A stretch of 40,284 bases of DNA, taken from positions 1-40,284 of the forward strand of contig JAPPIY010000122.1 of the NCBI GenBank assembly GCA_026914095.1, given 5' to 3'. The notes below the pieces were generated by a model that worked only from the letters and a program-made list of their open reading frames with translations, was not told where the DNA came from and ran no database searches. The DNA is from Oligoflexia bacterium. GTDB taxonomy: Bacteria > Bdellovibrionota > Bdellovibrionia > Bdellovibrionales > UBA1609. Shown one piece after another: positions 2,809-36,763 of the stretch; position 1 is the stretch's first letter, and each line of letters starts with the position of its first letter. The position numbers were made by a program, and so were the translations under genes.

Positions 2809-3085
2809 GATAGAGACCTTGTTTGAGTTTTTATCCCAGCTGTCATTTCCGCGCAAGCGGGAATCTCCCCAAATCTGGTCTCCTGAGAGCCGCTTTCACT
2901 TGTCATTCCCGCGCAAGCGGGAATCTCCCTAAAAAATTGTTTTATTGTTTAAATGTGATTTTTGTTCAAAAGCTTGCCAATCCACTTGCAAAAAGTCTAT
3001 CTGAGCTTTTAAGCCTCTCATCTTAAAGTTTTTGAAAAATAGAAACTATTGGGGATAGACTCAAATTTCAAACCCGGTTAGTAAA
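2809..3085. repeat. Composite repeat filling the whole lysC-lysA spacer
   Basis: Left terminus GATAGAGACCTTGTTTGAGTTTT at 2809-2832. Two 27-nt hairpins GTCATT(T/C)CCGCGCAAGCGGGAATCTCC at 2842-2868 and 2902-2928. Module TTTATTGTTTAAATGTGATTTTTGTTCAAAAGCTTGCCAATCCACTTGCAAA at 2941-2993. Right terminus CAAATTTCAAACCCGGTTAGTAAAG at about 3060-3085. Confidence 0.7.
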
Positions 3086-4283
3086 GATTAAATTCTTTGT
3101 GTAAAGCTCTGGCGGTTTTCTTCAGGCTCTTTTCATCAATGACAGTGCTGATTTTTATTTCAGAAGTGGTTACTAAATACAAACGCGCTTTGGTTTTTTT
3201 AATGACAGAAAAAAACCGTCCCGCCACTCCAGAATGGGAAGCCATGCCAACGCCGATAACGGAAATTTTAGCGACTTTATTTATGACAGAGATATTTTTT
3301 TCAACTTTGAGTTTTTTTAAAACAGACAAGCTTTTTTTCAAATCCGTCTTGGGAATAGAAAAAGACAAGCGGGAGGGAGCGCCTATCGCGCTTTGAGAGA
3401 TAATATCCACAAAGACAGCCTCTTTCCCCAGCTCTGTGAAAAGATCAGATAAAAAATTCACTCCCGAAGGAGTTTTATTAAATTTTATAACTAAAGTGTT
3501 TAAATCATGAGCTATTGCTGAAACGACAGAACCTTCCATACCCCCCTCCTTTTTGTTTATAATCCATGTCCCCTCTTCTTTTTTAAAAGCATGACGGACA
3601 TGGAGTTTAACATCATACTTTAAAGCCATTTCCACGGAGCGAATCTGCAACACCTTAGATCCCAAATAGGACATCTCCATCATTTCAGAAAAACTTAAGG
3701 ATTTTTGTTTTTTCGCTTTAGGGACTAATCGTGGGTCGGCTGTAAAGACTCCGGGCACATCCGTATAAATCTCACAAGTTTTCACTTTTAAAGCCGAGCT
3801 TAAGGCCACAGCGGTTAAATCACTGCCCCCTCTTCCTAAAGTGGTGATCTCATTTTGTTTTGTGACTCCTTGAAAGCCGGCAATTAAAGGCATGACTTTT
3901 TTTTTAAGAAGGGCTTTTACTTTTTCTATTTGAATCGATTCAATATGAGCTTTAGAAAAAAGGGCTGAAGTTTGAATCCCAGCTTGATGGGCTAAAAGAG
4001 GCTTGTTTTTTAGGCCTCTTTTTTCTAATGCGAGACTTAAAAGAGAGATGCTTATCTGCTCTCCCGAAGAGACCAGCATGTCGTAAGCCTCTCCTTGAAA
4101 GTGAGGATGAACTTTATGGGCCATTTGAATTAAAGAATCGGTGTAGCCAGACATGGCGGAAAGGACGACAAGGGGCTGTTCTCCTCTTTTTCTGTCTTCT
4201 GACAAGCGTTGGGCGATGCTTTCTATTTTTCTTATAGAGCCAACCGAAGCGCCGCCAAATTTTTTAACAATGAGACTTTTCAT
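3078..4283 (-). CDS. lysC: Aspartate kinase
   Basis: N-terminal KKFGGASVG signature, LGRGGSDLTAVAL motif, and C-terminal ACT-like region. The start overlaps the E2 stop as ATGA. Confidence 0.92.
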   Translation of the reverse strand: MKSLIVKKFGGASVGSIRKIESIAQRLSEDRKRGEQPLVVLSAMSGYTDSLIQMAHKVHPHFQGEAYDMLVSSGEQISISLLSLALEKRGLKNKPLLAHQAGIQTSALFSKAHIESIQIEKVKALLKKKVMPLIAGFQGVTKQNEITTLGRGGSDLTAVALSSALKVKTCEIYTDVPGVFTADPRLVPKAKKQKSLSFSEMMEMSYLGSKVLQIRSVEMALKYDVKLHVRHAFKKEEGTWIINKKEGGMEGSVVSAIAHDLNTLVIKFNKTPSGVNFLSDLFTELGKEAVFVDIISQSAIGAPSRLSFSIPKTDLKKSLSVLKKLKVEKNISVINKVAKISVIGVGMASHSGVAGRFFSVIKKTKARLYLVTTSEIKISTVIDEKSLKKTARALHKEFNLY

Positions 4284-5530
4284 TCTTCTAAAAGCAAGAG
4301 GCTAGGCTCTTCAATTTTTTGGACAAAGCTTTTTAAAAATCGGACGGCTGTGGCGCCGTCTATAAAGCGATGATCACAAGTGATGGAAAAATTTATAAAG
4401 TCTGTTTCTTCAAATTCCCCTTTTTCATTTTTCACCGCCTGTTTAAAAATTTTATAAATTCCTAAAATAGCCATTTCAGGAGCTTGTATGATAGGGACGC
4501 CGTAAAGCCCTCCTAAACTTCCTAAGTTTGTGAGAGTGAGTCCCGCTCCTTTTAAATGCTCTCTTTCAATAGCTCCCGCTCTTGTTTTTTTAGAAAGCTC
4601 AAAAAGCTCTTTTACAATTTCTAAAAGGTTTTTGTTTTCCGCTTGCTTTAAGACAGGAACTAACAGACCGTTGGGGCTGTCCACAGCAAAACCAAAGTTT
4701 ATATGTTTTTTAAAAACAATTTCTTTTGTTTTTGTGTCATAGACTGAGTTAAAAATCGGAAACTGTTTGAGAACAGGAACCAAAGCTTTCATAAAAAAGG
4801 GCAGATAACCCATTTTCAGCCCTTGCTTTTCTAAACGGCTTTTCATTTCCGTCCTCAGTTTTACCAGATGCCCTGCTTGAGCCTGTTCAACAATAGTAAA
4901 AGGGGGAATCGTGGCTCGGGACAAGGTCATGCTTTCAAACATCAGCCTTTGAATGCCTTTTAAAGGGATTCTTTTTGATTCGGCAAAGTCAGAAAAGGAC
5001 GGGGTGGAATAAGAGGGAGCTTTCATTTTCTTTTTTATATAATTGAGAAGATCCTCTCTTTTAATTTCTCCTCTTTCTCCAGAGCCTTTCACTTCTGTTA
5101 AATCCAGTCCCAGCTCTTCAGCTAACTTTCTGCTGGAGGGGATGGCTAAAGGAAAAAATTTTTCTGGCGGGACATCAGCTTTTTCCGCTTTTCTTTTCTC
5201 GCTTTTTTCTTTAGGGGGAGGGCAGGAGCTGTCTGTTGATTCTTCAGCTTGTTTAGAGGAGAATTCTTTTTTATTTTCTATTGGACTCTCTTTTGTCTGA
5301 ACTGTAAAAAGCTCCGCGCCAACGGAAATAATGTCTCCCTCATTGACATTGACTTTTTCAATCACTCCTTCTATAAAGGAAGGCACCTCCATAGAGGCTT
5401 TGTCTGTCATCACCTCTAATAGAGCTTGATCCATAGCAATAGAATCCCCTTCTTTCACTTTGATTTTTAAAATTTCCCCTTCTGTAACTCCCTCTCCTAA
5501 ATCAGGAAGTGTGATTTTTTTAAGAGCCAT
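4280..5530 (-). CDS. Dihydrolipoamide acyltransferase (E2) of a 2-oxoacid dehydrogenase complex
   Basis: Lipoyl domain with MTDKASMEVPS. Peripheral subunit-binding segment SSRKLAEELGLDLTEVKGSGERGEI. Catalytic CDHRFIDGA. Substrate class (PDH or BCKDH-like) is not resolvable by eye. Confidence 0.88.
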   Translation of the reverse strand: MALKKITLPDLGEGVTEGEILKIKVKEGDSIAMDQALLEVMTDKASMEVPSFIEGVIEKVNVNEGDIISVGAELFTVQTKESPIENKKEFSSKQAEESTDSSCPPPKEKSEKRKAEKADVPPEKFFPLAIPSSRKLAEELGLDLTEVKGSGERGEIKREDLLNYIKKKMKAPSYSTPSFSDFAESKRIPLKGIQRLMFESMTLSRATIPPFTIVEQAQAGHLVKLRTEMKSRLEKQGLKMGYLPFFMKALVPVLKQFPIFNSVYDTKTKEIVFKKHINFGFAVDSPNGLLVPVLKQAENKNLLEIVKELFELSKKTRAGAIEREHLKGAGLTLTNLGSLGGLYGVPIIQAPEMAILGIYKIFKQAVKNEKGEFEETDFINFSITCDHRFIDGATAVRFLKSFVQKIEEPSLLLLEE

Positions 5531-6422
5531 TTTTCATCCTTTGTTTTTGAATGAGAGCTGACATAAAAAACTCTCCGGCCCGGTAAGAGCTTCTTACCAG
5601 AGGACCGGAAGCGCAATACACAAAACCCATATTCTCTGCGGTTTGTTTCCACTCTTTAAATTCTTCAGGAGGAATGAACCGCTGGACAGGGAGATGTCTT
5701 TTTTGAGGGCGCAGATACTGTCCAAAAGTAACCACATCACAGCCAACTGCTCTTAAGTCCTTTAAAGCGCTTAAAACTTCTGAATGGCTTTCCCCCAAAC
5801 CTAACATGAGAGAGGATTTTGTGTAAATAGAAGGCTCTTGATTTTTTACAAACTCTAAAACATTGAGAGACTGTTTGTAATTGGCTCTGGGGTCCCTCAC
5901 TTTGCGGCTCAAGCTTTCCACCGTTTCTATGTTGTGGGCGAACACCTCCGGCCGGGCCCAGATGATTTTTTGAAGGCAGTCTTTTTTTCCTTTAAAGTCA
6001 GGGGTTAAAACCTCTATTAAAAGATAGGGCTGTCTTTTTTTCACCAGCTGTATGGTTTTAGCAAAGTGTCCAGCGCCCTCATCTTCTAAATCGTCTCTAT
6101 TGACGCTGGTGAGAACCACATAGCTGAGATTGAGGCGGGATAAAGTGAAAGCGACTTTTTCCGGCTCTTTTTCGTCCAGCCAGCCTCTAGGGTTTCCTGT
6201 TTTGACATTGCAAAAGCGGCAGCCTCTTGTGCAAATGTCTCCCATGAGCATGAGGGTGGCTGTTCCGCCGCTCCAGCACTCTCCGATATTAGGGCAGTTC
6301 GCCGATTCACACACAGTGGACAGCTTTAAATTTGCAAGCAGGCCTTTTATCAAGTGGTAATTTTTTCCCGAAGGGATTTGACTTTTTATCCAAGAGGGCT
6401 TTCTCAACACAGTTTTGCTCAT
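5520..6422 (-). CDS. lipA: Lipoyl synthase
   Basis: Cysteine clusters CESANCPNIGECW and the radical-SAM motif CTRGCRFCNV. The 3' end overlaps the E2 start by 11 nt. Confidence 0.95.
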   Translation of the reverse strand: MSKTVLRKPSWIKSQIPSGKNYHLIKGLLANLKLSTVCESANCPNIGECWSGGTATLMLMGDICTRGCRFCNVKTGNPRGWLDEKEPEKVAFTLSRLNLSYVVLTSVNRDDLEDEGAGHFAKTIQLVKKRQPYLLIEVLTPDFKGKKDCLQKIIWARPEVFAHNIETVESLSRKVRDPRANYKQSLNVLEFVKNQEPSIYTKSSLMLGLGESHSEVLSALKDLRAVGCDVVTFGQYLRPQKRHLPVQRFIPPEEFKEWKQTAENMGFVYCASGPLVRSSYRAGEFFMSALIQKQRMKNGS

Positions 6423-6527
6423 ATAGCTTTATTTATAATAAGTTTCCTGTAAAAACAAAGAGAATTTTTTAGGCTTTGCGCTTGATTGCTTTTAGATTTT
6501 GAAACTATAACAAAATCCGTTTAAAAA

Positions 6528-6664
6528 GTAAAAATTTTCAATGGAAAGGCTTGAAATGAGTTCAGCCTCCGGTTGCGCGAGGACAGGCTTTGACCACAAA
6601 GCGACTTGCAGTCGCATTGTGGCAAAATAGAGGACTGAGAAAGCCTTTCCATTGAAAATTTTAC
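6528..6664. repeat. Long-hairpin element (type B)
   Basis: 22-bp perfect arms AAAATTTTCAATGGAAAGGCTT (6531-6552) and AAGCCTTTCCATTGAAAATTTT (6641-6662). Inner hairpin TTTGACCACAAAGCGACT-TGC-AGTCGCATTGTGGCAAAA. Confidence 0.8.
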
Positions 6665-6765
6665 TCATAAGCTTTTTATTGTTATCTCCAGAAGAAAGCT
6701 CAAAATTCAAAATAGAGAATCATAGTCTGCATGAATTTAAAAGCTGTAGGACCAGCCGAGCTGTT

Positions 6766-6881
6766 TATACATATCCTGTTTGAAAACTCGGGTTTCAGTT
6801 GGATTCCCGCCCCCGTGTTTCCACGAGGACAGGCTTTCGCGGGAATGACTGTGCGTTGAAATTCCAAACAGGATTCGTATA
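6766..6881. repeat. MITE-like element, full copy (type A) with TA flanks
   Basis: TA|TACATATCCTGTTTGAAAACTC ... GAAATTCCAAACAGGATTCGTA|TA. Core GGATTCCCGCCCCCGTGTTTCCACGAGGACAGGCTTTCGCGGGAATGAC. Confidence 0.85.
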
Positions 6882-6893
6882 AAAGCAGAAAAA

Positions 6894-8912
6894 TCAGTGG
6901 ATGAACTGTTTTTTACAAGCCTCTTCTTGATCCTCATTTTGATCTTTAAAATCTTCTAATCTAAGCTGTCCCTTTCGATATTTTTCCCACAGCTCTGGCC
7001 CTAAAGCTTGCTCTATTTGCTCTTCTTTTGACATTTTTAAAAAAACTTCCTGCGCTTTTTTTGAAGATTCTCTAAAAATTCTATCAACTGTACCTTCCAG
7101 GGATTCTTCTTGCGGCTCAGCTGATTGCTTTTGACTGGATAAGTAGCTGGCTAAGTGTTTAAAATTTTGTTCTGTTAAATAAGTTTCCCAGTCTAACAGC
7201 CATTTATGCCCATCAATTTCCAAAGTCAGGGTTGGCGGAAGGCCCATCTTCTTAGATTCATGCAAAAACCGGACTTCTTCTTTCAATCCAAAAAATAAGG
7301 CCCATTCTATAGGGGACAAACTTAAGGGAAAGTAGTAGCTTTCAAGCTTGGGCAGATTATCATAAATCAGTCTTAAGATTTTTTTAGCTGGCGGCTTGAA
7401 AGGATCTTCTAAATCCAAAGAGCCATAAGTGACAAAAGCTAAAGACAGAGGATCTAAACTATAGGATTGTATAATTTTGTTATGCTCTTGTATTTTTTGG
7501 GCTGTCTCGGACTGTCTTAGTTTTTTTAGGATGTATTCAACCGCTGGAGTAAAACTTTGCCTTATCGCTTCTAAAAGAGGATTGCTCAACAGATACACTT
7601 TGTCAAAATTGACATAAGTGAAATTAAGAAAAATCTCTTCTGTTTTTAAGCCTTCTTTAGAGTCTAAAGTTTTAAAAAAATTTTCATCTCTGTTAAAAAT
7701 AGCTTGTAAGATTAAACGGGTGTTTTTAGGAATTCCCCCCTCTTTAGAGCTAAACTCATGGAGCATTAAAAGCCTTGTTTTTTCAGCTTTCATTAAGTTT
7801 GCATGAAAATCATTAAAAAAACTCATTAAAACCGATCGAGACTCTTTTGTTTGATAGGGATCAAAAAAATTAAATAGGTTTTTTAAAAAAGCTTGAAAAT
7901 TAAGGTAAGTGATGACAGGGGAATGGGAGGCTTTTGGTTTTTCTTGAGCTATGTAATTCCATAAGTTACTGTAATCTTGAGCCATTACATGAGAGGGAAG
8001 CAAGCTGAGTTCGCGAAACTTTTTTATCAGAATTCGTCTAAGTTTTTTATCTGGCTGGGAAAAAGTAAAATGCAGGGGAGTTAAGCCTAAAGAGTTTTTA
8101 TCCTTTAAAAGACTTTTAGCCTGTGGGATCTGTAAAAAAGCTATAAGCCCTTTGGTGTGCCTCTTCCTCTCTTTTTTCTTTAAATTCTGGTTTAACAGAA
8201 TATAAGAGTATATAATATTATCCCCTGTAGCAAGCTTAAGTCCAAAGTCAATTTCTCTTTCCATCAGCCTTTCTATAATTTTGGGTTTTTTTGTAGCTAA
8301 CAGATGATGAGAGAGAACAACAACAGTTTCCTCCTTGTTTTTGAACTCCTCAGGAAGCATTGAGCTTTTTATCTCCTTAAAAGACAGGCTGTCATTGACA
8401 GAAAGAGAGAGGGCCTCCATTAATTCAAAAATTTTTTCATTGAGAGAGCCATAATAAATAAGATGCAAAACAGCTAGTATTTTATCGGCTTTTGTAAAAG
8501 AGTGCTCCTCCATAAATTTTTGAATCTCTTCGGGCTTGTCTTTTTTTAAGGCGGAAAATAACTCTTCAAGCTTTTGATTGGCTTTAAAATGTGTCTCTGG
8601 CTCAGTTGGAATGCCAGCCCCCTGTCTTTCTAAAAAAACATTGTAAAAATGATCTATGATAATCGTATGATCTTTTATGAGCTGATTTAAGAAGTCATAA
8701 AAGCTTTGATGTTTTAATTGAAGATTTTTCCATTCACTGATTTGGAAAAGAGGCGCGCTGTGTCTGGTTCTTTGCCAAAAAGCTTGGGAGAGGCTTTTTT
8801 GTAGGAGCCGTTCTTTGTTGGCTGGGTTGAAGTCAAACTCCCCAGCGGAGCTGTAACAGTGAAAAGCCAGCGCAAAAAGCGGTAAAACTATAAAAGACGA
8901 AAACTGAGGCAT
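6894..8912 (-). CDS. Large secreted protein of unknown function (672 aa), mostly helical, with one ankyrin-like GLTPLH motif
   Basis: Long uninterrupted ORF. Signal-like N-terminus MPQFSSFIVLPLFALAFHCYSSAG. Acidic, lysine-rich C-terminal tail. No catalytic motif recognised. Confidence 0.7.
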   Translation of the reverse strand: MPQFSSFIVLPLFALAFHCYSSAGEFDFNPANKERLLQKSLSQAFWQRTRHSAPLFQISEWKNLQLKHQSFYDFLNQLIKDHTIIIDHFYNVFLERQGAGIPTEPETHFKANQKLEELFSALKKDKPEEIQKFMEEHSFTKADKILAVLHLIYYGSLNEKIFELMEALSLSVNDSLSFKEIKSSMLPEEFKNKEETVVVLSHHLLATKKPKIIERLMEREIDFGLKLATGDNIIYSYILLNQNLKKKERKRHTKGLIAFLQIPQAKSLLKDKNSLGLTPLHFTFSQPDKKLRRILIKKFRELSLLPSHVMAQDYSNLWNYIAQEKPKASHSPVITYLNFQAFLKNLFNFFDPYQTKESRSVLMSFFNDFHANLMKAEKTRLLMLHEFSSKEGGIPKNTRLILQAIFNRDENFFKTLDSKEGLKTEEIFLNFTYVNFDKVYLLSNPLLEAIRQSFTPAVEYILKKLRQSETAQKIQEHNKIIQSYSLDPLSLAFVTYGSLDLEDPFKPPAKKILRLIYDNLPKLESYYFPLSLSPIEWALFFGLKEEVRFLHESKKMGLPPTLTLEIDGHKWLLDWETYLTEQNFKHLASYLSSQKQSAEPQEESLEGTVDRIFRESSKKAQEVFLKMSKEEQIEQALGPELWEKYRKGQLRLEDFKDQNEDQEEACKKQFIH

Positions 8913-12748: not shown

Positions 12749-12958
12749 AAACATTAAGTTTAAAAGTTAAAGAATTAAAGCTAAAAAACTCAGACATGCG
12801 TTTTGCCACAAAGCGTCTGTTCCTTACAAGTTTTATTCATAAGATGTTCCTTGAATTTTTCAAATCATATTTACACTTAAAGAACCTTGGCAGACGCATT
12901 GTGGTCAAATCCGAACTCGTTTTTAGCTTTAATTCTTTAACTTTTAAACTTAATGTTT
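12749..12958. repeat. Long-hairpin element with 39-bp perfect terminal inverted repeats (type B)
   Basis: AAACATTAAGTTTAAAAGTTAAAGAATTAAAGCTAAAAA (12749-12787) is the exact reverse complement of 12920-12958. Inner inverted pair GCGTTTTGCCACAAAGCGTCTG / CAGACGCATTGTGGTCAAA. Confidence 0.9.
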
Positions 12959-17205: not shown

Positions 17206-17405
17206 AATAAAAGTATCGGAAAATGATAAAAAAATATAAAATTTTTTTATTAAATAAAGGAATGCTATACAACATAACTTCTCAAAAAGTTTTATCTTTA
17301 GCTTTTTGAGCCAACTTTGGCGGGACAAGGGCTGATCTAAAGGCGGGGTTTTCCCACCAAAAGCTGGAATTTTTGGGCATTATAGACATGATTTTGCGTA
17401 AAAAA

Positions 17406-17598
17406 GTGATTTTTGTTCAAAAGCCGGCCAATAAACTTGAAAATTCAGTCCTATGCTTTGCCACAAAGCCTGCCCTCGTGCAAAGAGAGGGCCGAACTTG
17501 TTTTGAGAATTTATTTGCCTGAACCTTCTTTTAAGCTGTTTTTTTGCAAATATTATTCCATTAAAATCGTAAATTCACAAAACCTTTCAATAGTTTAG
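17406..17598. repeat. Repeat cassette X downstream of mreB, paralogous to 27878-28172
   Basis: Shares GTGATTTTTGTTCAAAAGC...CTTG(C)AAA, a TTTGCCACAAAGC hairpin half, TGCAAATATTATTCC, and the tail AAATTCACAAAACCTTTCAATAGTTTAG (17571-17598). Confidence 0.75.
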
Positions 17599-18997: not shown

Positions 18998-19280
18998 TGG
19001 CGATTTTTGTTGTTTTAATTTTTTCAGATTTTGTTTGTTGTGATGATACCTGTCGCTGTGGTGACTTGTGATAAGATCAATTTACAAAGCTCTTTGGACT
19101 TACACCGATCCGGTTTGAATTTTTAGATCCCAACTAGACTCCCGCCCTCGCTTTCGCGAGGACAGGCTTTCGCGGGAGTGACAGAAATTAAAGCGGGAAA
19201 ACTCAAACAGGATCGGTATAAATTAAGCTTTATCAACAATTGGATGAGGGGAAATTGTCAGCTCTTGGCGATGAAGGGGC
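18998..19280 (+). pseudogene. Frameshifted 5' fragment of a paralog of the TadE/G-like gene, split by a MITE
   Basis: 18998-19102 aligns by eye with 19697-19809 of the live gene (for example VVTCDKINLQSSLDL versus MVTYDKINLQNSLDL), with a 1-nt insertion. Weaker similarity resumes at about 19228-19280 versus about 19862-19915. Confidence 0.65.
19101..19220. repeat. MITE-like element, full copy with TA flanks
   Basis: TA|CACCGATCCGGTTTGAATTTTT ... GGAAAACTCAAACAGGATCGGTA|TA. Core GACTCCCGCCCTCGCTTTCGCGAGGACAGGCTTTCGCGGGAGTGAC. Confidence 0.9.
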
Positions 19281-19325
19281 TTGTGTTTTTTTGAAGATGG
19301 GGAAAAAATTTAAGAGGAAATTTGT

Positions 19326-19505
19326 TAGACTGAATTCTGTTTGAAAATTCAGTCTAACAGTCCTTCCTGTAAGAGTTCAGTCATTCCCGTGAAAACGGGA
19401 ATCTCGGAAGGTTCAGAAACCGTCCTTCCCGCGAAAGTCTGCCCTCGCGAAAGCGGGGGTGGGAATCTCCAGAAAAAGCGGGAAAACTCAAACAGGATTA
19501 GTATA
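19326..19505. repeat. MITE-like element, long copy
   Basis: TA|GACTGAATTCTGTTTGAAAATTC ... GGAAAACTCAAACAGGATTAGTA|TA. Contains GTCATTCCCGTGAAAACGGGAATCTC and CCCGCGAAAGTCTGCCCTCGCGAAAGCGGGGGTGGGAATCTCC. Confidence 0.85.
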
Positions 19506-19643
19506 TAATACCAGAAAATTCAGTCGGTTTGTTTCCTTTTCTGTTGAAGGACAGAGCTTCCTCAAAAAGCCTGTCCTTATGAAAATAGGGGCGAAAGCGG
19601 GAATTTTTAGAAAAAACTTCAAAACTTAAACAGGATCGGTATA
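19506..19643. repeat. MITE-like element, left-degenerate copy abutting the TadE/G-like gene
   Basis: GAAAATTCAGTCGG... ends with AACTTCAAAACTTAAACAGGATCGGTA|TA. The right end lies 22 bp upstream of the TTG start at 19666. Confidence 0.7.
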
Positions 19644-19665: not shown

Positions 19666-22014
19666 TTGAAATTTTTGAAAAATGCGAGAGGTCAGGTGGC
19701 GATTTTTGTCGTCTTGATCTTTCAGGTTTTGTTTATTTTATTTGCCATGACGCTCAATATCGCTATGGTGACTTACGATAAGATCAACCTGCAAAACTCT
19801 TTGGACTTAGCCGTTTATTATGGAGCTAAAAAACAAGCCGAGGTTTTAAATGCCATGGCTCATATCAACTACCAGATGAGGCAGAACTGGAAGCTTTTAG
19901 CCTGGCGCTATCGCATTATGGGGACTCTCGTGCAATATGAGGGAGGAACTGAACCTAAATACTGGTGTCCGCAAAAATTCAATTCTATTAAGTCTTGTGA
20001 AAGTAGAAGCTCAAATTGCCAGAGCGCTCAAAGTATTTTGGATGATGTTTATGGCAATGACTACTGTGATTTTCGTTACTTTGTCTGTATTAGCCATGAT
20101 CTTTGGAAAAGAGGTATTCAGAAGAGCAAACAAAATTTATGTAATAAAGTGGGATTCAATATCCCCCCTGTTGTTGATTTGATTGTAGTAGCTCCATTTA
20201 TGGGAGAGGCCCTTTTAGCTTTTGGAGGGATAAACGATCTTCAAGATAATCTTGAAGAATCTTGCCCTGCGGAAGGAGCTGTAAACTGGCTGATGACTCA
20301 ATTTTTTATGACACATTTTCGTTTGGATCAACTAGATCGAAAGCTAATGATAGAGGAGATTTACAATCGCAGTTTAAAGGAAGGAAAAGATCTGGATGGC
20401 GCGGAGATTTTTGGAGGGGCAAAAAAGGTCTTTCGCGGCAATCTAACTAAGGCCAACCTAGAGAGTGTAAAAAGTTTAGCTGATTACGGCTTGCAGGATT
20501 TTAACTCTTTTAAGGACAAAGATTTTAAGGAGATTTTTAAAAAGTTAAATGTTTGGCCCGTTCTGCAATTTGCGCGCGTTGAGGTTATATCCTCAAATGG
20601 TAGCACGGATTGTAATGTACATATGGATCAACACTACAAATATGGAGACTTTAAATACAACGATGATGCCTTTGAAAAAGTTCAAAAAATATTAAGATTG
20701 GAAGTCCACCCTTTAGCTGGCGCTCTACGAGATGAAGTTAAACTCTTATTTAGGTTTAATGCTCTTAATTTTTTCCGCCAAGATGATCCGGACCCCATGA
20801 GGGAATTGACCCTCTCTTTTTTTAAAGATAAGGATCAGACTCTTTATTATGGCTTAAAGGCGGAGTTTGACTACCTCTCTCAAAATCAGATCTTTTCTTT
20901 GAGCTCTCCGGTTAAGTTTAAAGCCAGCGCCTTTGCCAAGGCCTTTGGCGGAAATTTTGGCCCTCAGCCGGAACAAAGCGATCCTCTCATTCCCGTTCAT
21001 TCTGTTTCGGGCTATCCGTCTCCCCCCAGCCTTATTCCCAACTCCAATCAGCTCAATGTGGCTCTGTTACAGCCCAATCACTCCCGCTTTCCGGGGGACA
21101 GATGGGGCCTGATTGATAAAAGGCTTCATGACAACCGTCACCCCTCCGAGATGAATTTTTTAAACAAACACGCCTACTATAACAAGATACAAAGAGTTTA
21201 TTCTATGGAGGATTACTTTCATTTGATTTGGGGGACTGGAAAACGGGATCCTCTGGTCCAGCGGCCTTCTTATAATCCCTACAATTTTACCAGAATGATG
21301 GAGCTAATGGCGGTCTATCCCGATCTCTATGATATTTCTTATTACTCTATTTTGGGCAACTATCATCAGACTTATTTTAAAAAAATCTGTAAGCTTTTAT
21401 TGGGTGGCTCCGACTGTGATCTTGGCGGGAGCAACAAATTTAACTCTCCGGCGGCCCTTGGCAGACCCGTGTATATCCGGGGGGATTTTGGCTGGAAGGA
21501 CAGCCAGGAGTACTTAGAAGAAAATTACAGAAAGAAGGTCATTGAGTTATCTATCGCCCCTTATTTTTTAAATCAAGACAACGGAAAGGTGGCTACCAAC
21601 ATAATAAAAGATCCCGGCTATGATAGTTCTGGCCATCCTCCTAGGCTTTGGGGGAAAATACAATATGAAAGCAACCGGCCCAAGCATTATCGTGATAATG
21701 GTTTCTATCCTCTCTCCCAAGGGAACTTGTTTTACCCCTGGCTGGCTCGCTCTGATCCTGATCTTGACAAAGCGAAACTTCCTGATGGGCTTTTAAGCTC
21801 TTGGACCAATCCTCATCCTTTGAACTATGAAAAGTATGAATTAGATGAGGATCGTTTTTTAAAATGTGAGAGTACGGCTTTAAAAACAATGCCGGTTCCC
21901 AGCGCCTGCGCCAGCGGAGGGCGGAGCGGCTACTCCGTTAAGTTGATTTCTTGTGAAACTGTGAGAGATTTTGACCTTCAACCCAGTAATATTGACGACT
22001 ACTGCCCCAATTGA
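19666..22014 (+). CDS. TadE/TadG-like (Flp-pilus pseudopilin-like N-terminus) large secreted protein, 782 aa
   Basis: N-terminus RGQVAIFVVLIFQVLFILFAMTLNIAMVTYDKINLQNSLDLAVYYGA matches the TadE/G-like N-terminal pattern. 14 cysteines. The rest is unassignable. TTG start with GAGAGGGA upstream. Confidence 0.7.
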   Translation: MKFLKNARGQVAIFVVLIFQVLFILFAMTLNIAMVTYDKINLQNSLDLAVYYGAKKQAEVLNAMAHINYQMRQNWKLLAWRYRIMGTLVQYEGGTEPKYWCPQKFNSIKSCESRSSNCQSAQSILDDVYGNDYCDFRYFVCISHDLWKRGIQKSKQNLCNKVGFNIPPVVDLIVVAPFMGEALLAFGGINDLQDNLEESCPAEGAVNWLMTQFFMTHFRLDQLDRKLMIEEIYNRSLKEGKDLDGAEIFGGAKKVFRGNLTKANLESVKSLADYGLQDFNSFKDKDFKEIFKKLNVWPVLQFARVEVISSNGSTDCNVHMDQHYKYGDFKYNDDAFEKVQKILRLEVHPLAGALRDEVKLLFRFNALNFFRQDDPDPMRELTLSFFKDKDQTLYYGLKAEFDYLSQNQIFSLSSPVKFKASAFAKAFGGNFGPQPEQSDPLIPVHSVSGYPSPPSLIPNSNQLNVALLQPNHSRFPGDRWGLIDKRLHDNRHPSEMNFLNKHAYYNKIQRVYSMEDYFHLIWGTGKRDPLVQRPSYNPYNFTRMMELMAVYPDLYDISYYSILGNYHQTYFKKICKLLLGGSDCDLGGSNKFNSPAALGRPVYIRGDFGWKDSQEYLEENYRKKVIELSIAPYFLNQDNGKVATNIIKDPGYDSSGHPPRLWGKIQYESNRPKHYRDNGFYPLSQGNLFYPWLARSDPDLDKAKLPDGLLSSWTNPHPLNYEKYELDEDRFLKCESTALKTMPVPSACASGGRSGYSVKLISCETVRDFDLQPSNIDDYCPN

Positions 22015-23313: not shown

Positions 23314-23367
23314 CAGTGAATATATGGGTGTTTATCATAGTGGCTAAGTTAATTGCGCCTATAATTC

Positions 23368-23469
23368 CCGAAAATTCAGATTGTAACTAGACTCCTGCTC
23401 CTCGCTTTCGCGAGAATAGGCTTTCATGGGAGTGACAGAAGGGAGGAAAACTCAAACAGGCCTAGTATA
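23368..23469. repeat. MITE-like element, left-truncated
   Basis: GAAAATTCAGATTGTAACTAGACTCCTGCTCCTCGCTTTCGCGAGAATAGGCTTTCATGGGAGTGAC...GGAAAACTCAAACAGGCCTAGTA|TA. Confidence 0.75.
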
Positions 23470-23516
23470 AATTTTAAAAGGAACAACAAAAGAAACGGCA
23501 AAACTTAGAGAGCCAA

Positions 23517-24743
23517 TCATTTCTTTTTGATTTGGTATTCATAGACAGCCTTTTCATGCTCTTTATAAGTTTTTGAAAATTTGTGACTGCCGTCATTGCG
23601 GCTTACGAAATAAAAGTAATCTGACTTTTCTGGTTTAAAAACCGCTTGCAGGCTCTCTTTTCCGGGGTTGGCAATGGGATTGGGGGGCAGTCCCTTTACA
23701 ACATAAGTGTTATAGGGGGAATTAAATAAAATATCCGCTTTTCTAATGTTTTTTTCTATATCAAAGCCCCGAATGAGATAAAGAGAATATAAAATAGTGG
23801 GGTCGCTTTGCAGTTTCATCTTTTTTTTCAAGCGGTTGAAAAAAACACCGGCAATCAAAGGCCGCTCTTTGGCCTGCCCAGTTTCTTTCTCCACTAGACT
23901 GGCCAAAGTCACCACCTGATGACGGCTTAAATTCACTTCTAAAGGAGATTGAGAGATTTCTTGATAAATTTTTGCAAACTTTTGAGTCATGCTTGTAATC
24001 AAATCTTCCGCCGGCAGGTATTTTGTCAGCTGATAGGTGTCAGGGAAGAGATAGCCTTCTAAAGATTCCAAATCTTGCTTTATCAGCTTTTTTGTAAAGT
24101 TTTTATTCCAAACCAGATTTAAAAATTGCTCTGTCTCAGAGTAGTTGTGGTTTTTTAAAGTTTCCGCCATTTCATAATGGTTGAATCCTTCAGGAAAAGA
24201 GACTTTAAAGACACGGACTTTGCCTTCCTTAAAATGATTAAAAATTTCCCACACGCTCCTATCAGAAGATATTTCATACTCTCCCTGTCTGAGAGCGGGG
24301 CGGCCATAGAGCAAAATGAGAGCTTTAAAAAGTTTTTCAGAAGAGATGATTTGTTTTTCTTTCAGCTCTCCCGCCAACTGATAAAAGGTTTTGCCAGGGG
24401 GGACATCAATTGTATGGATCAGGTTTGAGTTTTTCATTTCATTGTTCTGTTTTTCTTCGGAAGACGGAGCTCTCGCGAAAGCTTGCCCTGGTGGAAACAC
24501 GGGGGCAAGCTTTCGCGGGAATGAAGAGAAATCGGGAGAACTCAAACAGGATGGGTATAGGCTGTTTAAGTTTTGAAGTTTTTTATGGAGATTCCCGCCC
24601 CCGTGTTTCCACCAGGGCAAGCTTTCGCGGGAAGGACTGTCATACTGAAACTTCAAGCCAGAGGAGTATAAAACAGTCTCTGTTTTAGAAAGGAGAGAGC
24701 CAAAACAAAAGCTTATCAAAAGAAAGAATCCAAAAATTTTCAC
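23517..24743 (-). CDS. mltG: Endolytic murein transglycosylase (YceG-like) carrying an in-frame repeat-derived insert
   Basis: YceG core: FPEGF, LASLVEKE, FFNRL, LQSDPT, YNTY, GLPP.PI.NPG. The GTG at 24743 is preceded by GGGAGA with 7-nt spacing and directly follows the astD stop. N-terminal TM MKIFGFFLLISFCFGSLL. Confidence 0.88.
   Translation of the reverse strand: MKIFGFFLLISFCFGSLLSKTETVLYSSGLKFQYDSPSRESLPWWKHGGGNLHKKLQNLNSLYPSCLSSPDFSSFPRKLAPVFPPGQAFARAPSSEEKQNNEMKNSNLIHTIDVPPGKTFYQLAGELKEKQIISSEKLFKALILLYGRPALRQGEYEISSDRSVWEIFNHFKEGKVRVFKVSFPEGFNHYEMAETLKNHNYSETEQFLNLVWNKNFTKKLIKQDLESLEGYLFPDTYQLTKYLPAEDLITSMTQKFAKIYQEISQSPLEVNLSRHQVVTLASLVEKETGQAKERPLIAGVFFNRLKKKMKLQSDPTILYSLYLIRGFDIEKNIRKADILFNSPYNTYVVKGLPPNPIANPGKESLQAVFKPEKSDYFYFVSRNDGSHKFSKTYKEHEKAVYEYQIKKK
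24462..24670. repeat. Two tandem partial MITE copies lying inside the mltG reading frame
   Basis: CGCGAAAGCTTGCCCTGGTGGAAACACGGGGGCAAGCTTTCGCGGGAATGA...GAGAACTCAAACAGGATGGGTA|TA, then GATTCCCGCCCCCGTGTTTCCACCAGGGCAAGCTTTCGCGGGAAGGACTG...CAAGCCAGAGGAGTA|TA. Confidence 0.85.
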
Positions 24744-26192
24744 TTAAAAATCTCCCTTGGTTTTTTCAGCTAAAGGCGTAACGCAAAAGTCAATGGCAAA
24801 AGCTCCAGCTGGCCGGTCATTCCCAGATTTTCCCAACCCTCCAAAGGGCAGATAACTGCTGGCCCCTGCCGTGGATAGATTGTGATTGATAAGACCTACT
24901 TTGGCGCGATGAAAAATCTCTTCTTGGATTTTTTTATTTTTTGAAAAAACAGAAAGACTCAAGCCATAGCCGGAATGGTTGATCATCTCTAGGGCCTGAT
25001 CCAAACTGTCAGTTTCATAAAAAATCACTTGAGGGGTGAAGCTTTCTTTCGTTCCAAAAGAGGAGTTTTTATCAAACTTCATTTTGTAAAGGCCGGGGCT
25101 GACATAATAGCCTTTTTCTTTTAAAATTTGTTTTCCCTCCAGCAGAGCTTTTCCGCCTCTGTCTTTGATTTCTTTTTGCAAGTCAAAAAATCTTTGGATG
25201 GATTTTGAGTCAATCAAGCTTCCCATAAGAGAGTTTTTGCTCCAATGATCCCCTTTGATCTCTTGAGCGGACTTTATAAATTTTTTTGTAAAGTCTTTAG
25301 CTATTTTTTTATGAAGAACAATTTGCGAAGTAGAAGAGCATCTTTGCCCCGAAGTCCAAAAACAGCCTTTTAAAGTTTCTTTAACCGCTAAATCCAGATC
25401 AGCGTCTTCCCAAATAAGAGCGCTGTTATAGCCCCCCATTTCCAAAACTAAAATTTTAGAAAAATCTTTCACAATAGATTCTTTGATCTTTTGGCCGACT
25501 TCAAAAGAGCCTGTGAAAAGAGCGCCGTCAATCTCCTTATGCTGACAGAGTTTTTTAGAAACTTCAGCTCCCCCTTGGATCATTTGAAAAACTCCCGAGC
25601 CTAGGTCTAAGCGGTCAAAGGCTTGAGTGAGTTTTTGGCCGCTGGCTGGAGTTTTTTCGGAAGGCTTGAATATCACTGTGTTTCCCACAGCCAGAGCAGG
25701 TAAAATTTGCCCTAAGGGCAACAGCATGGGAAAATTAAAAGGGCCTATCACTAAGAGCAAACCCCGGCTCTTAAAGCGGATTCTTCCCTTAGCTTGAGGA
25801 ACTGTTTGATCTTGAATCCGGGTTAAACCCTCCTTTAAAACAAAATCGGTTTTTGAAAGGAGAGCTTTCACCTCTCCCTGGCTTTCCCAAAGAGGCTTGC
25901 CTGTTTCTCTGGAGATCAGCTCCGCCCAAGGGTTAATATTTTGTTTGATAATTGTTTTTAAGGGACTCAGTCTTTTGACCCTCTCTTTTAAAGAGAGCCT
26001 CGCCCAATTTTTATGAGCGGTTTTTCCAGCTAGGATCGCGGAATCAATTTCCCCTGTATTTTTTTCAGGCCAAGTGAAGATCAAGTCTTTAAAATCCGCC
26101 GGACTGATATGTTTTTTGATAAAGTTTTTTTTAGAGGGGCTTTGAAACCGTCCTTTCACATAAGAGCCTAAAAAAGAGATTTTCTCCATCAT
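24744..26192 (-). CDS. astD: Succinylglutamate-semialdehyde dehydrogenase-like aldehyde dehydrogenase
   Basis: GPFNFP, FKPSE, LEMGG, catalytic GQRC, and the AstD-like C-terminal segment LSTAGASSYLPFGGLGKSGNDRP. Start set at the MM pair (26192/26189), which matches the AstD N-terminus. Confidence 0.85.
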   Translation of the reverse strand: MMEKISFLGSYVKGRFQSPSKKNFIKKHISPADFKDLIFTWPEKNTGEIDSAILAGKTAHKNWARLSLKERVKRLSPLKTIIKQNINPWAELISRETGKPLWESQGEVKALLSKTDFVLKEGLTRIQDQTVPQAKGRIRFKSRGLLLVIGPFNFPMLLPLGQILPALAVGNTVIFKPSEKTPASGQKLTQAFDRLDLGSGVFQMIQGGAEVSKKLCQHKEIDGALFTGSFEVGQKIKESIVKDFSKILVLEMGGYNSALIWEDADLDLAVKETLKGCFWTSGQRCSSTSQIVLHKKIAKDFTKKFIKSAQEIKGDHWSKNSLMGSLIDSKSIQRFFDLQKEIKDRGGKALLEGKQILKEKGYYVSPGLYKMKFDKNSSFGTKESFTPQVIFYETDSLDQALEMINHSGYGLSLSVFSKNKKIQEEIFHRAKVGLINHNLSTAGASSYLPFGGLGKSGNDRPAGAFAIDFCVTPLAEKTKGDF

Positions 26193-26395
26193 AGAAAGTT
26201 TAATACAGATTTTGTCTCCAACCAAATATTTTTTGAAAATCCAGTGTGAGAAGAAAAAGAGACGAAACTTCACTTCATGTAAAAAACCGGTAGCCATTTA
26301 ATATGACGATTCAGTGAAAAGCTATTTGTAAAGGCAAAGATTCTTGAAGAAGAAGCTTATTTCAAAAAGAAATTTTGATTTTTTTAGTATCTCAA

Positions 26396-27779: not shown

Positions 27780-27877
27780 AACAATAAAGCTAACAAAAGA
27801 ATTTTATTTAAACAATATCTCTATAAAAAAAACTTTATCTTTGAGGATTTTTACGAGTCGGCGATGAAAAAATTTGC

Positions 27878-28172
27878 TTTATTGTTTAAATGTGATTTTT
27901 GTTCAAAAGCTTGCAAATCAGCTTGCAAAGTGAGTTTGGTTTTTATCACAATATTGTAAATGTTCAGTCATTCCCGCGAAAGCGGGAATCTCCAGACAAA
28001 ACTTCAAAAGTTCAAACCCGATCCGCATCACTTGCTTTCTTGTAAATACTATCCTTTTATACTGATCGTATTTGAAAACTCAGCGCTACGCCTTCTTCAA
28101 AAACTTAAAACCGGAATTTTCAAACACGATCGGTATAAGATCATAAATTCACAAATCATTTCAATAGTTTAG
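27878..28172. repeat. Repeat cassette Y upstream of ileS, with a nested 76-bp mini-MITE at 28060-28135
   Basis: Module TTTATTGTTTAAATGTGATTTTTGTTCAAAAGCTTGCAAATCAGCTTGCAAA (27878-27929). Hairpin GTCATTCCCGCGAAAGCGGGAATCTCC (27967-27993). Mini-MITE TA|TACTGATCGTATTTGAAAACTC...TTTTCAAACACGATCGGTA|TA. Tail AAATTCACAAATCATTTCAATAGTTTAG (28145-28172). Confidence 0.8.
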
Positions 28173-36554: not shown

Positions 36555-36763
36555 TATACTGATCTTGTTTAAGATTTGGAGGCTCTTTTGAAAGATGACA
36601 ACAAGAGATTTAAGAGTAAAAATTTTCAATTCCAAGACTTAAAATTCAGTCCTGCGTTTTGCCACAAAACGGTCTTTGGCCGCCTTGCGCTCAAAGCCTG
36701 CCCTCGCGAAAGCGGGGGCGGGAATCTAGTTAAAGCCAGAGAATTCACAAACAGTGGCCTATA
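36555..36763. repeat. Composite MITE-like element
   Basis: TA|TACTGATCTTGTTTAAGATTT ... AAAATTCAGTCCTGCGTTTTGCCACAAAACGG ... GCCTGCCCTCGCGAAAGCGGGGGCGGGAATC ... GAATTCACAAACAGTGGCCTA|TA. Confidence 0.7.

Follow-up and report, generated by a model that had tools for sequence, protein, structure and literature searches.

Two MITE Copies Carried in Frame Inside the mltG Gene of an Oligoflexia Bacterium

Introduction

The Correia elements of Neisseria, which are about 100-155 bp long, are flanked by a TA duplication, have terminal repeats beginning with TATA and occur at very high copy number. They are mainly intergenic or gene-disrupting, and their co-transcribed hairpins are RNase III substrates in Neisseria. 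[quoted passage not shown] According to that review, nearly half of the RPEs lie inside open reading frames (ORFs), each encoding a conserved peptide (Ogata et al., 2000, 2002, cited in PMC10969869). In Coxiella burnetii, QMITE1 and QMITE2 overlap annotated genes; at the 3' ends of functional genes, they mostly provide a new C-terminus and a stop codon (PMC5896051). The present study concerns the mltG gene in a 40,284-nt stretch of DNA, hereafter the window, from an Oligoflexia bacterium (assembly GCA_026914095.1, contig JAPPIY010000122.1, positions 1-40,284). MITE DNA was found in frame between the N-terminal hydrophobic segment of the encoded protein and its YceG body, which supports the core of an initial annotation of this stretch. 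We are confident that the finding is real and well supported, and regard it as a well-resolved new example of a known phenomenon.

Structure of the Insert

The mltG ORF lies at 23517-24743 on the minus strand and encodes 408 amino acids, including an 86-codon MITE insert (ORF listing; Pfam YceG; TIGR00247). As first annotated, it opens with a GTG (24743-24741) immediately after the astD stop codon (TAA, 24744-24746), and a Shine-Dalgarno (SD)-like GGGAGA (24751-24756, minus strand) precedes this GTG with a 7-nt spacer; these features were read directly in the sequence. The native N-terminal 25 codons (MKIFGFFLLISFCFGSLLSKTETVL; 24669-24743, minus strand) encode a hydrophobic, putative export or anchor segment and were recognized by homology to insert-free orthologues. 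Their last two bases, 24669-24670, are the TA target dinucleotide.

The insert spans 24411-24668 on the minus strand, that is 258 nt or 86 codons (residues Y26-T111), and not the approximately 70 codons at 24462-24670 initially proposed; the new limits come from the element termini and from the orthologue alignment. It holds two MITE copies at one TA dinucleotide between codons L25 and I112 (TTA-ATT). In the direction of the gene, the layout is GTT T-TA-(copy B, 109 nt, reverse)-TA-(copy A, 145 nt, forward)-CA-ATT GAT. Copy B, reversed relative to the gene and shortened at one terminus, occupies with its TA duplication 24558-24668 (minus strand; 111 nt, 37 codons, Y26-L62). Copy A, in gene orientation and with an expanded variable region, occupies with its mutated duplication CA 24411-24557 (minus strand; 147 nt, 49 codons, Y63-T111). 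Against a MITE profile of 126 positions, made from eight window copies with the two mltG copies among the seeds, nhmmer matched copy B at 24559-24672 on the plus strand (profile positions 9-124, E = 2e-26) and copy A at 24559-24409 on the minus strand (positions 2-124, E = 2e-24). The copy boundaries were set from the terminus consensus TA-(T/G/C)AC.GATCC...GTA-TA, the outer hyphens marking the element ends. Judged from these matches and termini, the insert is composed of two essentially complete copies whose left ends meet, head-to-head. Minus-strand MITE DNA is thus present in frame, as had been claimed, in the form of complete inverted copies and not of tandem partial ones.

The peptide SSEEKQNNEMKNSNLIHT, at which native YceG/MltG sequence had been thought to resume, is encoded by the expanded variable region of copy A and its right terminal repeat (AAAAACTCAAACCTGATCCATA, encoding KNSNLIH); native sequence restarts at I112 (IDVPPG). 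Removal of the insert leaves 322 residues, the exact length of insert-free orthologues, instead of the expected 340 or so. The insert peptide is rich in Ser, Pro, Gly and Asn. A 92-aa plus-strand ORF at 24410-24688 was rejected as a gene: the head-to-head pair reads almost the same on both strands, and the ORF owes its openness to this symmetry alone.

Downstream of the insert, the native catalytic body (I112-K408) occupies 23517-24410 on the minus strand, stop codon included, as delimited by Pfam, TIGRFAM, the alignment with structure 4iiw_A and the confidence of the structure prediction (pLDDT). Pfam YceG (PF02618) matches residues 112-400 (E = 8e-85; 285 bits, the cut-off being 32.4). TIGR00247 (MltG) covers residues 103-403 on profile positions 33-340 of 347 (E = 1.5e-76; 257.7 bits against a cut-off of 103.4), and its alignment leaves, by that measure, roughly 70 surplus N-terminal residues. 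The Listeria MltG structure 4iiw_A (Lmo1499) aligns with residues 109-404. Two motifs, VEKETG (E285-K286-E287), whose Glu we take from E. coli MltG to be the catalytic residue, and QSDPT (Q312-D314-P315), are invariant across 24 orthologues including the window protein. An NCBI entry with the identical 408-aa protein is named [quoted passage not shown] MAG standing for metagenome-assembled genome. By these matches, the YceG transglycosylase domain is intact in the 408-aa protein.

Empty Sites and Remnants in Related Genomes

The orthologue alignment reveals the clean indel that the initial annotation had proposed to look for. At the position where the window carries copies B and A, with a protein of 408 aa, the TA site of L001 and L003 is empty (...GTTTTA-ATTGATGT..., that is GTTTTA-ATTGAT). 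Both of these relatives encode MK..(25 aa)..VL-IDVPPG and a protein of 322 aa, 408 minus 86 exactly. The hydrophobic N-terminal segment that had been recognized in the window protein (MKIFGFFLLISFCFGSLL) is indeed present and homologous to the N-termini of the relatives; its insert-free counterpart in L003 reads MKLVELFLVANFCLAGFSAKKETVL-IDVPPG.

Two further relatives show other states of the same region. In L002 (394 aa), a 102-nt copy, A', stands at the same TA and in the same orientation as copy A, and has lost its core. This genome also carries a copy elsewhere, copy C (L002 3028-3141; 114 nt with its TA), which splits the hydrophobic N-terminal segment without breaking the frame, and the N-terminal helix of its protein is a chimera of native and MITE-encoded residues (IFFKVFLFL-SILFEFSASFV). 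Subtraction of both copies again gives the insert-free length (394 - 38 - 34 = 322). L008 (336 aa), which is 89-92% identical to L002 in the catalytic part, is empty at the copy C site (cTA-agt), revealing a second clean TA duplication. At the first site, it keeps a 33-nt, 11-codon remnant of the right end of A' (AELEDKIYI vs NELEKSNKISI). The linkers of several other relatives exceed that of the 322-aa form by 22-32 residues. For L004-L007, nhmmer on the linkers alone detected no MITE homology; the idea that these linkers are decayed MITE copies, prompted by faint resemblances seen by eye (YAESS vs RAPSSEE, FLQxPS), is regarded as conjecture.

Window copy A and copy A' of L002 share, besides site and orientation, a perfect 19-nt non-consensus block (CGAGAGCTCCGTCTTCCGA) found nowhere else in the window or in the loci compared. 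The 4-fold degenerate sites of the two mltG genes are 57% identical. In a single-gene neighbor-joining tree, empty-site genomes are nearer to each of the window and L002, and fall between them. The astD and mltG (core) trees disagree on the nearest relative of the window, with weak support; the conflict hints at recombination at the astD-mltG junction.

The adjacency of astD and mltG is kept in all the closest orthologue loci compared, with astA near in most; the mltG start lies right behind the astD stop in L001-L008, and an AAA_14/DUF4143 gene follows mltG in L001 and L002. Three side observations concern these genes. The astD-like ORF of the window (24744-26297) has 517 aa vs 481-482 aa in most of the relatives L001-L008; its extra 36 N-terminal residues look like an over-extended ORF, the true start being probably MMEKISF or MEKISF. 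In L001 (2920-3000), the mltG orthologue P0003 was called as 295 aa; the real TTG start directly behind the astD stop gives 322 aa and the conserved N-terminus. In L006, the C-terminus of the mltG orthologue is frameshifted (3001-4044; ..KVRLPLLCQ) and the neighboring Tad gene is broken into small ORFs (4781-6938), which indicates either a low-quality assembly or a decaying genome.

Frame Preservation and Translation Start

All five length changes at these sites (147, 111, 114, 102, and 33 nt) are multiples of three and free of stop codons. For comparison, 11 delimited intergenic copies were inserted virtually at the mltG site in both orientations, and only 1 of the 22 insertions was both frame-preserving and stop-free; about a quarter of the single frames per MITE copy lack stops. 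Because 1 in 22 virtual insertions passes while all the intragenic ones do, the latter form a filtered subset: an insertion in mltG is tolerated only if the YceG domain stays in frame with the N-terminal segment.

This bears on the start codon. An in-frame ATG within copy A (M103; 24435-24437, minus strand, read directly) would give a protein without the export segment. In line with the initial annotation, which had discounted it, no SD-like (GGAGG-like) motif was found upstream of this ATG. Initiation there is unlikely because all four intragenic copies and the remnant, in three genomes, keep the frame and contain no stop. This frame filter provides the best available argument for translation from the GTG at 24743 instead of the ATG at 24437. 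Thus, the mltG ORF is most likely translated from GTG 24743 into a 408-aa MltG.

Predicted Structure of the Protein and of the mRNA

In the AlphaFold2 model, built with 24 orthologues, a helix is predicted at residues 2-15, pLDDT is about 30 over residues 15-105, and a confident domain (>90) begins at about residue 110. The 86-residue insert is therefore probably floppy or disordered, according to the model. The first beta-strand of the domain (109-114, IHTIDV) is modeled with three MITE-encoded residues replacing the ancestral TVL.

A repeat search showed that the cores of copies A and B make up a long inverted repeat (24471-24632) with 36-nt arms (24471-24506 and 24597-24632). The two cores can pair in the mRNA because the copies are inverted. 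The calculated fold of the minus-strand RNA from 24400-24680 reaches -104.3 kcal/mol, compared with -61.4 ± 4.9 for shuffled sequences; the mRNA of the insert could thus form a very stable hairpin with a stem of about 38 bp. No terminator-like site was found in the hairpin segment of the mltG insert.

The MITE Family in the Window

About 18 copies or fragments of the element, 80-200 nt long, were found by nhmmer in the 40-kb window, or about one per 2.3 kb. An 18-mer of the core occurs seven times, compared with 0.02 expected. The aligned copies give the consensus TA-(T/G/C)AC.GATCCTGTTTGAAATTTCAGG...GACTCCCGC..CCGTGTTTCCACGAGGACAGGCTTTCGCGGGAGTGACAG...GGAAAACTCAAACAGGATTGGTA-TA. The element is about 110-150 nt long, has terminal inverted repeats ((T/G/C)AC.GATCCTGTTTGA ... 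TCAAACAGGATC.GTA) and a palindromic, G+C-rich core, and is flanked on both sides by TA in 10 of the 14 copies that could be delimited. From its short length, many copies, terminal inverted repeats and TA duplication with filled and empty sites, the family is classified as a MITE. It also occurs at other positions in the related genomes L001, L002 and L006. Outside mltG, the remaining copies (about 16 of the 18 or so in the window, and all of those in L001-L008) are intergenic; two window ORFs overlap MITE copies only via implausible upstream TTG starts. An intergenic copy lies just downstream of the mltG stop (23354-23472, plus strand; nhmmer E = 3e-28, profile 2-125). For this copy, no empty site was found in the relatives, where the intergenic DNA is too diverged.

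The window is a housekeeping region (lysA-like, aspartokinase, E2, lipA, clpX, mreB, tad, astA/astD, ileS, lspA, ppx, and gatA/B) and contains no transposase gene. IS1595-type and DDE_Tnp_1 genes are present in L003 and L008, and in the stretches examined their termini do not match the MITE. An Rfam scan of the window returned no match, and no tRNA gene was found in it. A similarity search of plasmid DNA gave no match either. As exact patterns, a 25-mer of the core had no match in the JGI metagenomes and the terminal-repeat pattern had five, none of them a full element by nhmmer. A scan of a genome collection with the 17-mer GRCARGCTTTCGCGGGA was discarded as too unspecific: the loci listed came from unrelated G+C-rich genomes only, none labeled Oligoflexia. 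No paper came up when the full-text literature was searched for Oligoflexia in combination with the MITE phrase, and the family, dense in this uncultured Oligoflexia lineage, is apparently undescribed.

Other repeats of the window deserve mention. The mreB-tad intergenic region (19101-19643) is crowded with four to five MITE copies or fragments of mixed orientation, which suggests that the element often inserts beside or into its own TA-rich ends, as in mltG. This cluster is flanked by a 96-nt direct repeat of 73% identity (19007-19102 and 19714-19809). The second repeat copy lies within the 5' end of a 782-aa Tad-like ORF, and a rearrangement associated with the MITE may have left the pair as a duplicated gene start. 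Between two small ORFs, there is an inverted repeat with perfect 39-nt arms (12749-12787 and 12920-12958) around a 132-nt spacer. A second repeat family (..TCAG.C.TGCGTTTTGCCACAAAGC), with further members at 17433-17469 and 36634-36670, accounts for part of this inverted repeat. A third family, of 62 nt (GTGATTTTTGTTCAAAAGCTTGCCAATC..CTTGCAAA), occurs at 2931-2992, 17382-17443, and 27868-27929, with two copies up to 92% identical; every copy is intergenic and adjoins a MITE copy or fragment. The G+C content of the window is 39%, and relatives L001, L003, and L004 are represented by contigs of 1.55-1.87 Mb. The lineage may be one of small-genome Oligoflexia, which would fit selfish-repeat proliferation.

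Origin and Fate of the Insertion

The following scenario would best account for the data, and we consider it likely. A TA-targeting MITE, very abundant in the AT-rich Oligoflexia genome, would have inserted twice at one TA of mltG, the second copy landing in the TA duplication beside the first and creating the head-to-head pair; this order of insertion is our reconstruction. Each step lengthened the gene by a multiple of three (147 and 111 nt, duplication included) without bringing in a stop codon, so that mltG is still a single ORF, most likely translated from GTG 24743. In the 408-aa MltG, which we presume to be made in full length and to be active, an 86-residue unstructured spacer would separate the export or anchor helix from the YceG domain. 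Selection on mltG would have removed frame-breaking insertions, and in a juxtamembrane tether extra length would do little harm. The insert would be a tolerated passenger, presumably neutral, and such inserts would be trimmed over time by in-frame deletions, as in the relatives.

Several points weigh against this scenario. The hydrophobic N-terminus may be a putative membrane anchor or a cleaved signal peptide, and the stretch is only about 16 residues long, so that the word "anchor" should be used with care. The label "essential-type," which the initial annotation gave this enzyme, is an assumption. The 38-bp or so stem predicted in the mRNA could impede translation or attract RNase III. The source is a MAG, in which a single-base error near the insert is possible. 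In addition, the in-frame MITE looks specific to this locus and not genome-wide, because a search of 5.8 billion proteins with the 86-aa insert peptide matched no other carrier, a weak negative given that the parent protein was also not returned. Finally, the relation of copies A and A' leaves room for several histories: they may stem from one old insertion with later losses, from two hits of the same subfamily on one TA, or from transfer by recombination at the 5' end.

Alternatively, the insertions could have uncoupled or inactivated mltG, leaving a young pseudogene or an ATG 24437 product without export segment, the frame being still open only because the insertion is recent. Some bacteria can do without MltG, and the copies do look young: the core of copy B is 92% identical to that of an intergenic copy at 6802-6852, and the A and B cores are 97% complementary. 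The predicted mRNA hairpin is very stable relative to the shuffles (z = -8.7), and the right end of copy A contains a weak promoter-like site (24437-24409). However, both steps kept the frame open, which few virtual insertions do, and the older copies of L002 and the remnant of L008 are likewise in frame. Both the catalytic motifs and the 25 codons of the native N-terminus are preserved, the ATG is not preceded by an SD-like motif, and, from established MltG biology, a YceG domain devoid of export signal would remain cytoplasmic, away from its substrate. Inactivation is consequently judged improbable.

A slightly less probable possibility still is that the extension is adaptive, in which case MITE DNA would have been co-opted to lengthen the tether, altering the reach, partners or regulation of MltG, and selection would maintain it. 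The same 26-codon segment has received insertions in at least two genomes, and a third retains a trimmed remnant. The longer linkers of several relatives could be read in the same way, and so could the 19-nt block that copy A shares perfectly with its L002 counterpart even though synonymous sites are saturated. On the other hand, the closest relatives L001, L003, and P0004 do well without insert, and the inserts vary in sequence and length, being deleted rather than conserved. Disorder is predicted for the peptide, no MITE homology was detectable in the longer linkers of L004-L007, and the recurrence follows just as well from a site that tolerates insertions and an element that is very active. 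Last, a repeat-induced misjoin during assembly, conceivable in a MAG window full of near-identical repeats, is very improbable given that the astA-astD-mltG-AAA_14 order is collinear with five to six independent assemblies, that the insert sits exactly at a TA with normal element termini and the frame kept, and that the independent assembly L002 carries a copy at the same site.

If two TA-site insertions were kept in frame as tolerated passengers, the MltG tether would accommodate at least 86 extra residues. The frame filter is also an indirect genetic indication that one reading frame must hold both the N-terminal segment and the catalytic domain. In annotating such genomes, one should not automatically call MITE-bearing genes pseudogenes or shorten their starts. 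A broader proposal is doubtful: the MltG tether in this clade might be a recurrent landing pad where MITE DNA becomes protein and is whittled by in-frame deletions. Part of the linker diversity between 322 and 408 aa would then be MITE-born, possibly with selected consequences for tether length or, via the mRNA hairpin, for mltG expression.

Comparison With Known Systems

That MITEs can fuse in frame with genes was established in principle with the Rickettsia RPEs, and the present finding opens no new question. Its value is that of a clean, datable example of selfish DNA becoming protein sequence in bacteria: across related genomes, one locus is seen empty, freshly filled by two copies, occupied by a decayed copy, and reduced to a remnant of 11 codons.

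Compared with MltG/YceG enzymes such as E. coli MltG and Listeria Lmo1499 (4IIW), the window protein follows the same plan, an N-terminal hydrophobic segment followed by the YceG domain, but neither the solved structures nor the nearest orthologues contain anything like its 86-residue spacer. The element itself resembles the Correia elements in duplicating TA, in having TATA-like termini, in how densely its copies lie and in its mRNA hairpins, as far as a comparison by description, and not by sequence, can tell. Like the QMITEs of C. burnetii, it supplies in-frame amino acids to an annotated gene; here, however, it stands within the gene, close to the 5' end, and the reading frame runs across the whole of it.

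The closest parallel, that with the RPEs, had been drawn in the initial annotation and applies to behavior. Both are palindromic mobile repeats of about 100-150 bp found in frame in housekeeping genes of a small AT-rich genome, with a peptide segment gained and the host protein kept. The parallel does not extend further: the window family is overwhelmingly intergenic, only the N-terminus of mltG is hit, and frequent in-frame residence in unrelated ORFs is not seen; moreover, two copies stand head-to-head at one TA. As far as the negative Rfam scan and insert-peptide search go, without comparison to an RPE consensus, the sequences are unrelated. We would not file the window element as an RPE, though its insertion seems to work like that of one.

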